Assembly (NCBI GenBank): GCA_964016885.1
Contig: OZ024765.1
Span: forward strand, 8,246,001 to 8,310,000
Direction of reading: 5' to 3'
From: Eledone cirrhosa
Lineage: Eukaryota
Length of the DNA: 64,000 bases
In this document: piece by piece, positions 48,878 through 50,070 of the stretch
Position numbering within the stretch: the stretch's first letter is position 1
How the letters are laid out: each line of letters opens with the position of its first letter
Notes under the pieces: model-generated
Told to the model about the DNA's origin: nothing
Databases searched by the model: none
The model's input: only the letters and a program-made list of their open reading frames with translations
Translations under genes and position numbers: made by a program

Positions 48878-50070
48878 ATGGAGGAAAGTACAAGTGGTAT
48901 TATTGTTGCAAATAGCAGCAACAGCAACAACAGTTCGGACTGTAGAGGAGGAGGAGGTGGTGGTGGTGGTTGTATTGATGGTGTTGTTGTTGGTGGTGGT
49001 GATGATGGATATACATGTATTGCGACGATAGGATATACAGACGACCAACAACACCAACATCATCACCACCAACAGCAACACCAAGACGGTCAGCCGGCCC
49101 TACAGCAACACCAAGACAGACAGTCAGCCCCACATCAACACCAAGACGAACAGTCAGCCCTACATCAACACCAAAACGAACAGCCGGCCCTACATCAACA
49201 CCAAAACGGACAGCCGGCCCTACATGAACCCGAAGACGGGCACCCACCCCTACAACAACCCCAAGATGGACAGTCAGCCCTACATCAACACCAAGACGGA
49301 CCCCTACCCCTACAACAACCCCAAGATGGACAGTCAGCCCTACATGAACCCCAAGACAGACAGTCAGCCCTACATGAACCCCAAGACGGACAGTCAGCCC
49401 TACATCAACACCAAGACGGACCCCTACCCCTAGATCAACACCAAGACGAGCACCTGTCCTTACAAGAACCCCAAGACGGACCCCTACCCTTACATGAACC
49501 CCAAGACGGGCACTTGCCCTTACATGAATCCCAAGACGGACCCCTACCCTTACATGACCACCAAGACGGACCCCTACCCTTACATGACCACCAAGACGGA
49601 CCCCTACCCTTACATGACCACCAAGACGGACCCCTACCCTTACATGACCACCAAGACGGGCACCTGTCCTTTCATCGACACCAACAGGGGCACCTGTCCT
49701 TTCATCGACACAACGACGAAGACGATGACGATGATGTCGATGATGGTGAAAGGTTACCTTTCATCACTTATGTCGGATACTATGACGACGATGAGAACGA
49801 TATGAGTTCGATGACGGCGGTTTTCATCGAAACTGACATGGACGATGAGGATTACAGTGCAATGGTGAAAATAGAGAAAACAGACGACGATGAAAACGAC
49901 GCAGGAAAGAGATGTGACGACGATGAAAATGATGAAAGGCAAGGTGAACGACGGCGAGGACGAGGAAATCATCATCACAGCTTTCCTCTTAATGTCTTCG
50001 ATGGAAGTAAAAGAAACGATGATGGAAATATTCCGACGTCTACTGCTGACTTGGAGACCTCTGTAGGAGG
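48878..50070 (+). CDS. MTF1: MTF-1 probable first coding exon (His/Gln/Asp repeats plus acidic region)
   Basis: 1193 nt open frame from an ATG in good context (actATGg); gtaggt donor in phase 2 matches the 60289 exon; assignment rests on phase and position. Confidence 0.72.
49079..49708 (+). repeat. Coding 30 bp minisatellite: 21 decapeptides (HQDGPLPLHD-like)
   Basis: Exact 30 nt period with no frameshift or stop in the reading frame. Confidence 0.9.

Follow-up and report, generated by a model that had tools for sequence, protein, structure and literature searches.

The first coding exon of the metal sensor MTF-1 in Eledone cirrhosa carries an array of 21 in-frame 30-nt units ahead of the zinc fingers, which is probably a coding minisatellite that arose from a pre-existing His/Gln tract and persists as a tolerated spacer, with metal sensing staying with the zinc fingers. 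The array lies in the window, by which we mean the whole 64,000-nucleotide stretch of contig OZ024765.1 that was analyzed. An initial annotation of this DNA had instead proposed a metal-binding module with a tunable number of copies.

The MTF-1 gene and its first coding exon

By every feature within the window, which ends after finger 1, the gene reads as MTF-1, in agreement with the initial annotation. Finger 1 and the pre-finger exon are identical or nearly identical to those of Octopus (Table 1); the finger is the first C2H2 finger of MTF-1 and matches decapodiform-type proteins at 24 of 26 residues, and the pre-finger segment is identical to Anolis MTF-1 at 22 of 46. The T-x-V motif of the acidic N-terminus is found at aa 308, its pattern recurs in 69 of the 80 MTF-1 rows compared, and both T134 and V136 (O. 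vulgaris MTF-1 numbering) are nearly invariant across a 52-row alignment. Searching with exon 2 retrieved three proteins from five candidates, their clusters containing O. sinensis MTF-1, O. vulgaris MTF-1 and Sepia pharaonis MTF1, and a Pfam scan of exon 1 returned no family.

The first exon is a single open frame whose ATG has a strong context, with A at -3 and G at +4. We rejected an open frame alone as proof of coding, because non-coding 48-bp and 72-bp arrays in the window give frames of 211-383 aa and because one minus-strand frame of the 30-nt array is open too. Beyond the array, the exon can be aligned with O. vulgaris MTF-1 up to the splice junction, where the phase-2 donor (GT at 50071) fits an acceptor AG ending at 60288. 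Junction residues are read through in four of the five cephalopod proteins compared, the fifth having an evidently mis-predicted first exon, so that the 50070/60289 junction, and with it the in-phase splicing asserted earlier, is supported by orthology. The contigs behind two decapodiform-type proteins, P0003 and P0004, are 2867 and 2727 bases long; because contigs this short encode proteins of 840 and 830 residues, each is most likely a spliced transcript crossing the same junction. Added up, 1193 + 141 + 1 nt give 445 codons ahead of finger 1, as the first estimate had it.

Reads bear on the 3' end of the exon. In each of three sequencing runs (one sample, possibly the source of the assembly), one contig is identical over 49640-50095, through the donor, and in a fourth run (second sample, same study) a single 84-base contig is identical over 49640-49713. 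Reads over 49640-50195, which include only the last two of the 21 array units, revealed no joint or loose end at 50070.

Upstream, MTF-1 stands head-to-head with RPS4 (minus strand, 34794-48052; Pfam RS4NT at 43873-44019, S4 at 42221-42529 and S4e at 34794-34952). The two ATGs are 826 bp apart, which therefore leaves no space for a further upstream coding exon of MTF-1, and the genes likely share a bidirectional promoter. A pyrimidine run (~48079-48070) and the ETS-like motif at 48154 are, by consensus, putative promoter elements at the RPS4 start. The RPS4 N-terminus reads M-G-Y-R-G-R-R-K and differs from the usual S4 start. Autoregulation of MTF-1 through MREs was considered and rejected, as the interval 44000-50100 holds a single TGCRCNC match, at 46436, and none near the start.

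Table 1. Coordinates of the features discussed, in positions of the window
Feature	Position	Strand	Evidence or remark
Likely RPS4 first exon (ATG only, 48052-48050; donor 48049) with pyrimidine-rich start and ETS-like motif (48154)	48050..48160	-	bounds the MTF-1 5' end
MTF-1 first coding exon (CDS part), 397 codons + 2 nt, donor GT 50071	48878..50070	+	aligned with O. vulgaris MTF-1 at 50% identity (128 residues, E 3e-26)
Ser/Asn/Gly-rich leader, Gly run flanked by Cys; matches the octopod N-terminal extension	48878..49045	+	alignment; low-complexity match by eye
His/Gln tract adjoining the array, aa 57-67; His run at the equivalent O. vulgaris site	49046..49078	+	shuffle p 0.062, suggestive only
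Array of 21 x 30 nt, in frame, 210 aa, Gln/His/Leu/Pro/Asp-rich	49079..49708	+	unit count, TRF
Acidic tract; contains, from 49799, the conserved N-terminal motif of MTF-1 (D-x-SS-x-T-x-V type)	49709..50070	+	alignments
Putative intron 1, 10.2 kb; microsatellites, reverse-transcriptase-like ORF, 123-bp array	50071..60288	+	junction taken from orthologues
MTF-1 pre-finger exon	60289..60429	+	45/46 identical to O. vulgaris and O. sinensis; 42/46 to decapodiform-type proteins
MTF-1 zinc finger 1 exon	61660..61739	+	26/26 identical to Octopus; Pfam zf-C2H2 E 1.9e-06

Structure and distribution of the array

All 21 units are exactly 30 nt long and in frame, and the unit types grade along the array in the way first described. 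TRF independently calls the array with a period of 30, plus a 120-bp higher-order period. Mean pairwise identity is 75% between all units and 84% between neighbors; 19 of the 21 are distinct, and units 17-19 are identical to one another, which makes the suggested tuning through copy number plausible. Of two unit patterns, one has 8 matches and the other 7, every one within the array, against an expectation of 0.00 (100 shuffles), and an origin from a dispersed repeat was rejected, as no copy of the unit lies elsewhere in the 64-kb window. Head-to-tail units of 10-100 bp within a reading frame characterize coding minisatellites, and the array is built in this manner. As much as 51% of the window is tandem repeat, including many minisatellites, so their supply is high.

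The encoded 210 aa consist mainly of Gln (43), His (34), Leu (29), Pro (28) and Asp (23), followed by Gly (16), Ser and Glu (10 each) and Ala (9), with a net charge of -29 and just two aromatic residues. There is no Met and no Cys, and hence no Cys cluster of the metallothionein-like kind. The HxH motifs noted earlier as recurrent form at unit junctions, and all three kinds are present (5 HQH, 4 HDH and 2 HRH), although at 11 of the 21 junctions rather than throughout. The longest His run in exon 1 counts four residues and lies upstream of the array, short of the five or more expected of a poly-His speckle signal. Downstream, the very acidic tract had been described correctly, and it includes the conserved MTF-1 motif.

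The array is absent from all 80 rows matching the MTF-1 finger-1 pattern, a set that includes isoforms and fragments, comes in part from the best 120 of 3024 matches (many of these 120 being unrelated polydactyl fingers) and represents octopods by two closely related Octopus species, with insects and most other octopods outside it. Across these rows, 35 to 364 residues precede finger 1, the value of 364 belonging to a mis-predicted Sepia model, and MTF-1 N-termini measure about 105 to 281 aa (210-217 in limpets). At 445 aa, the MTF-1 N-terminus of Eledone cirrhosa exceeds every other credible one in the 80 rows. With a median of 152 aa over 74 MTF-1 rows, the figure of ~140 aa originally quoted for vertebrates is about right. 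Vertebrate MTF-1s share the MTF-1-type finger 1, the pre-finger segment and an acidic N-terminus with T-x-V, but have about 140-160 aa ahead of finger 1; Drosophila MTF-1 is grouped with this type by description, not by sequence. Peak His density per 50 aa is 13 in Eledone cirrhosa, compared with 8 in Octopus, and no remaining row exceeds 6.

The MTF-1s of Octopus vulgaris (CAI9741842.1) and O. sinensis (XP_029652763.1), 99% identical to one another, have the same acidic motifs, junction, low-complexity extension and His run, yet they lack the array and place 280-281 aa before finger 1 instead of 445. A five-His run occupies the site of the array, alongside a Ser/Asn leader and a Gly/Cys patch, and the shared part of exon 1 is just 50% identical between Octopus and Eledone cirrhosa. 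The decapodiform-type P0003, clustered with Sepia pharaonis MTF1, and P0004 likewise have the conserved motif (13 of 15 residues identical in P0003) and the junction, but their N-termini of 162-168 aa start about where the array ends and lack leader and His run. Because the Octopus and decapodiform-type orthologues keep the acidic motifs and junction of the exon without the array, which is missing from all four cephalopod MTF-1s with a credible first exon, the array appears to be private to the Eledone cirrhosa lineage. The lineage specificity originally claimed is thereby upheld by the comparison of N-termini across mollusks and other MTF-1s, whereas the link drawn to cephalopods as a group fails on these same four proteins.

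Wider searches for an array-bearing MTF-1 gave null results, which weigh little for octopods without a public proteome. The exon-1 protein, compared with longer proteins, had two matches among 2145 candidates, namely O. sinensis MTF-1 and one unrelated repeat protein. A phmmer search with the same protein against 1.84 billion representatives returned 75 matches, none with MTF-1 motifs, all unrelated proteins that resemble the array by composition alone. A metagenome scan confirmed 0 of 597 pattern matches, and the best ESM Atlas score, 0.75, fell under its chance level. In the open-licence literature, supplements excluded, we found no publication on the cephalopod MTF-1 N-terminus or on such an array; octopod gene-model tables could contain one. 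Coding minisatellites of disordered protein regions, poly-His nuclear proteins (PMC2644819) and repeat-derived HxH peptides (PMC13756084) are likewise repeat-born, His-containing and of low complexity. The array differs from them in its 10-aa unit and spaced His, in its location within a conserved metal sensor, and in being neither a homopolymer nor a de novo ORF.

Selection, origin and possible function

The frame of the array is kept, with no indel and no stop in 630 nt at 75% unit identity, and four of its other five frames contain 1 to 31 stops. From 55 unconstrained changes ~2.8 stops would be expected, with a P(0) of 0.06. Of ten other arrays in the window (at least 30 bp, 76-85% matches; some rows overlap), eight contain 4-11% indels or, for two of them, 2%, and one contains 0. 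At the amino acid level, the in-array pN/pS comes to 0.79 when all pairs are compared and to 1.34 along a spanning tree of the 19 distinct units, where 9.5 silent changes accompany 45.5 replacement changes (binomial p 0.63); distinct unit variants comprise 7 silent and 20 replacement changes against 20 and 67 possible. This is a weak test, its 30-nt units being short and non-independent, and it is blind to selection on overall composition; within these limits, the amino acid sequence of the unit is not conserved. Per unit position, the tree places 5 changes at His1 and 6 at His9, and 2 each at Gln2, position 7 and Leu8. His1 is present in 13 of 21 units and lost in 8, His9 present in 16 and lost in 5, so that the conserved His positions of a His-rich metal-binding repeat domain are not seen here. 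Selection for metal binding, as the initial annotation implied it, finds no support, with replacement changes as frequent as silent ones and His positions among the most variable. The missing Cys cluster, the unconserved His and the short His run lower the case for a selected metal site, not the capacity to bind metal.

In the O. vulgaris MTF-1 model, built on the 52-row alignment, residues 1-229 are almost all below pLDDT 50 and most fingers reach 75-94, on which basis the insertion site is predicted to be disordered. A single-sequence fold of exon 1 has a mean pLDDT of 40.5 and, made without an alignment, is uninformative.

We favor a tolerated coding minisatellite. In octopods, MTF-1 is already extended at its N-terminus by a long stretch of low complexity that includes a short His run (280 aa ahead of finger 1 against the median of 152). 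Slippage or unequal crossing-over may have copied a 30-nt piece of the His/Gln tract, and the 5'-to-3' grading, the 120-bp period and the three identical neighbors would be traces of a turnover that went stepwise and was in part recent. All units measure 30 nt and none contains a stop; since the gene is read through the array, frameshifts would have been purged by selection, the unit peptide being free to drift as the frame stays. Because every conserved MTF-1 element is downstream of the insert, the protein would act as an ordinary MTF-1, sensing with its zinc fingers and C-terminal domains, and the His and Asp of the array may bind some Zn or Cu weakly in vitro, like any such peptide, with little cellular effect. 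The end of the array, taken together with its tail, can be aligned with the His run and acidic tract of O. vulgaris (matched by 0 of 1000 shuffles), a result owed in large part to the tail. With the O. vulgaris tract the inner units showed no significant alignment (p 0.47 and 0.85 by shuffling), and the proposed origin from the His/Gln tract therefore draws on position and composition. Counting against a spacer are the His density, highest among the MTF-1 rows compared, and the cost of the insert, since 210 aa persisting to 75% unit identity are not free; the location of a His-rich expansion on a metal sensor is also suggestive. According to PMC3995336, recent unit gain or loss is rare in human protein repeats, so that a conserved factor with a young array of 210 residues is something out of the ordinary.

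The foremost alternative, which we consider unlikely, is that the array binds Zn, Cu or Cd through its His and Asp, either buffering metal from the fingers or concentrating it in their vicinity, and that the dose-response is set by the number of repeats; in the buffering variant, metal held off the fingers would raise the threshold. Equally doubtful is its fullest form, a repeat-built His/Asp metal-binding tail on a master metal sensor whose unit number would act as a heritable dial for the Zn/Cu/Cd threshold. The density of potential ligands speaks for it (34 His, 23 Asp and 11 HxH in 210 aa, beyond any MTF-1 N-terminus compared in the case of His), as do the youngest-looking units, which are of the HDH type. 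Against this stand the unconserved His positions and the lack of Cys, which is the ligand that Cu(I) and Cd prefer. A low-abundance transcription factor would, moreover, make a poor bulk buffer. MTF-1 senses free Zn in the picomolar-to-nanomolar range. In PMC13756084, HxH is described as a coordination-competent spacing, but the His-rich comparison site cited there binds Zn at ~14 uM, far above the levels sensed by MTF-1. Evidence from PMC5397501 cuts both ways: the rules of vertebrate MTF-1 describe metallothionein induction in cephalopods poorly, and regulation of the MTF type may not fully apply, but O. vulgaris, the species whose digestive gland was studied there for Cd, Cu and Zn, lacks the array. 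The known sensing parts of MTF-1 are the fingers, the acidic/NES region and a C-terminal Cys cluster (PMC11503025, PMC4879176; see also PMC2396432).

A role independent of metal is more improbable still. Here the acidic, disordered repeat would serve as an extra activation domain or target the protein to speckles or condensates. With a net charge of -29 and its 29 Leu, 28 Pro and 43 Gln, the array has the acidic Leu/Pro/Gln-rich composition that resembles activation domains, and Gln2, Asp3 and Leu8 are the best-kept unit positions; however, there are just two aromatic residues, and no amino acid constraint was detected. His tracts can direct human nuclear proteins to speckles, but the signal, according to PMC2644819, is one of consecutive His, of which six suffice, compared with a maximum of four here, outside the array. 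O. vulgaris, in turn, has five consecutive His without an array.

Least probable, with only a slender chance in our view, is that the array rarely reaches the protein, through a cryptic intron or a later Met start, or that its length is an assembly or allele artefact: decapodiform-type MTF-1s do begin about at its end, in-frame Met codons lie at the conserved motif downstream, one moderate donor-like site occurs at 49089 and a second gene copy is possible, but the 630 nt are free of indels and stops where most comparable arrays of the window have 2-11% indels and ~2.8 stops were expected (P(0) 0.06), the upstream Met context is common to Octopus, acceptor-like sites within the array have at most 4 T per 15 nt, where the real acceptors have 7 and 11, and 19 distinct units out of 21 are too diverse for assembly stutter.

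Significance and further features of the window

Eledone cirrhosa and O. vulgaris form a natural pair with and without the array in a little-studied region of MTF-1. If the array shifts the metal response, a minisatellite would have given a conserved sensor a regulatory module that binds metal. Metal tuning, if true, would bear on the departure of cephalopod metallothionein induction from the vertebrate pattern (PMC5397501). If there is no shift, the array exemplifies a load of repeat DNA tolerated by the tail of an essential transcription factor.

Several observations concern MTF-1 more generally. The T-x-V motif and the pre-finger segment (O. vulgaris residues 134-136 and 234-278) are common to all MTF-1s compared; the latter is modelled as a two-strand hairpin (pLDDT 63-68) and matches no convincing Pfam family. 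Octopus MTF-1 has Cys pairs and a CCC right after finger 6 (residues ~460-500), as well as several Cys/His/Asn-rich pseudo-repeats near the C-terminus (residues ~900-1060). These Cys/His regions, which lie outside the window, are better candidate metal-binders than the N-terminal array. O. sinensis MTF-1 carries the names 'mucin-5AC-like' and 'FLO11-like' in public databases, because of which searches by name miss it. The Sepia pharaonis MTF1 model CAE1301375.1 opens, within residues 1-317, with a long string of Leu and Ser that evidently stems from translation of a CT microsatellite, and P0003 from the same cluster shows a normal acidic first exon.

Elsewhere in the window, a satellite family with units of 60, 67 and 72 bp is found on both strands (6485-7330, 25275-25947, 28340-28461, 31177-32617, 37034-37820 and 60449-61588), one of its arrays beginning 20 bp past the donor of the exon at 60289-60429. 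GTA/GTG trinucleotide tracts extend over 19905-23224 (3.3 kb) and 120-1211 (1.1 kb), with a GC skew near 0.9-0.98. Open frames resembling fragments of LINE reverse transcriptase, recognized by eye only, are present at 54220-55467 (+), 55722-56330 (+) and 12161-13123 (-).
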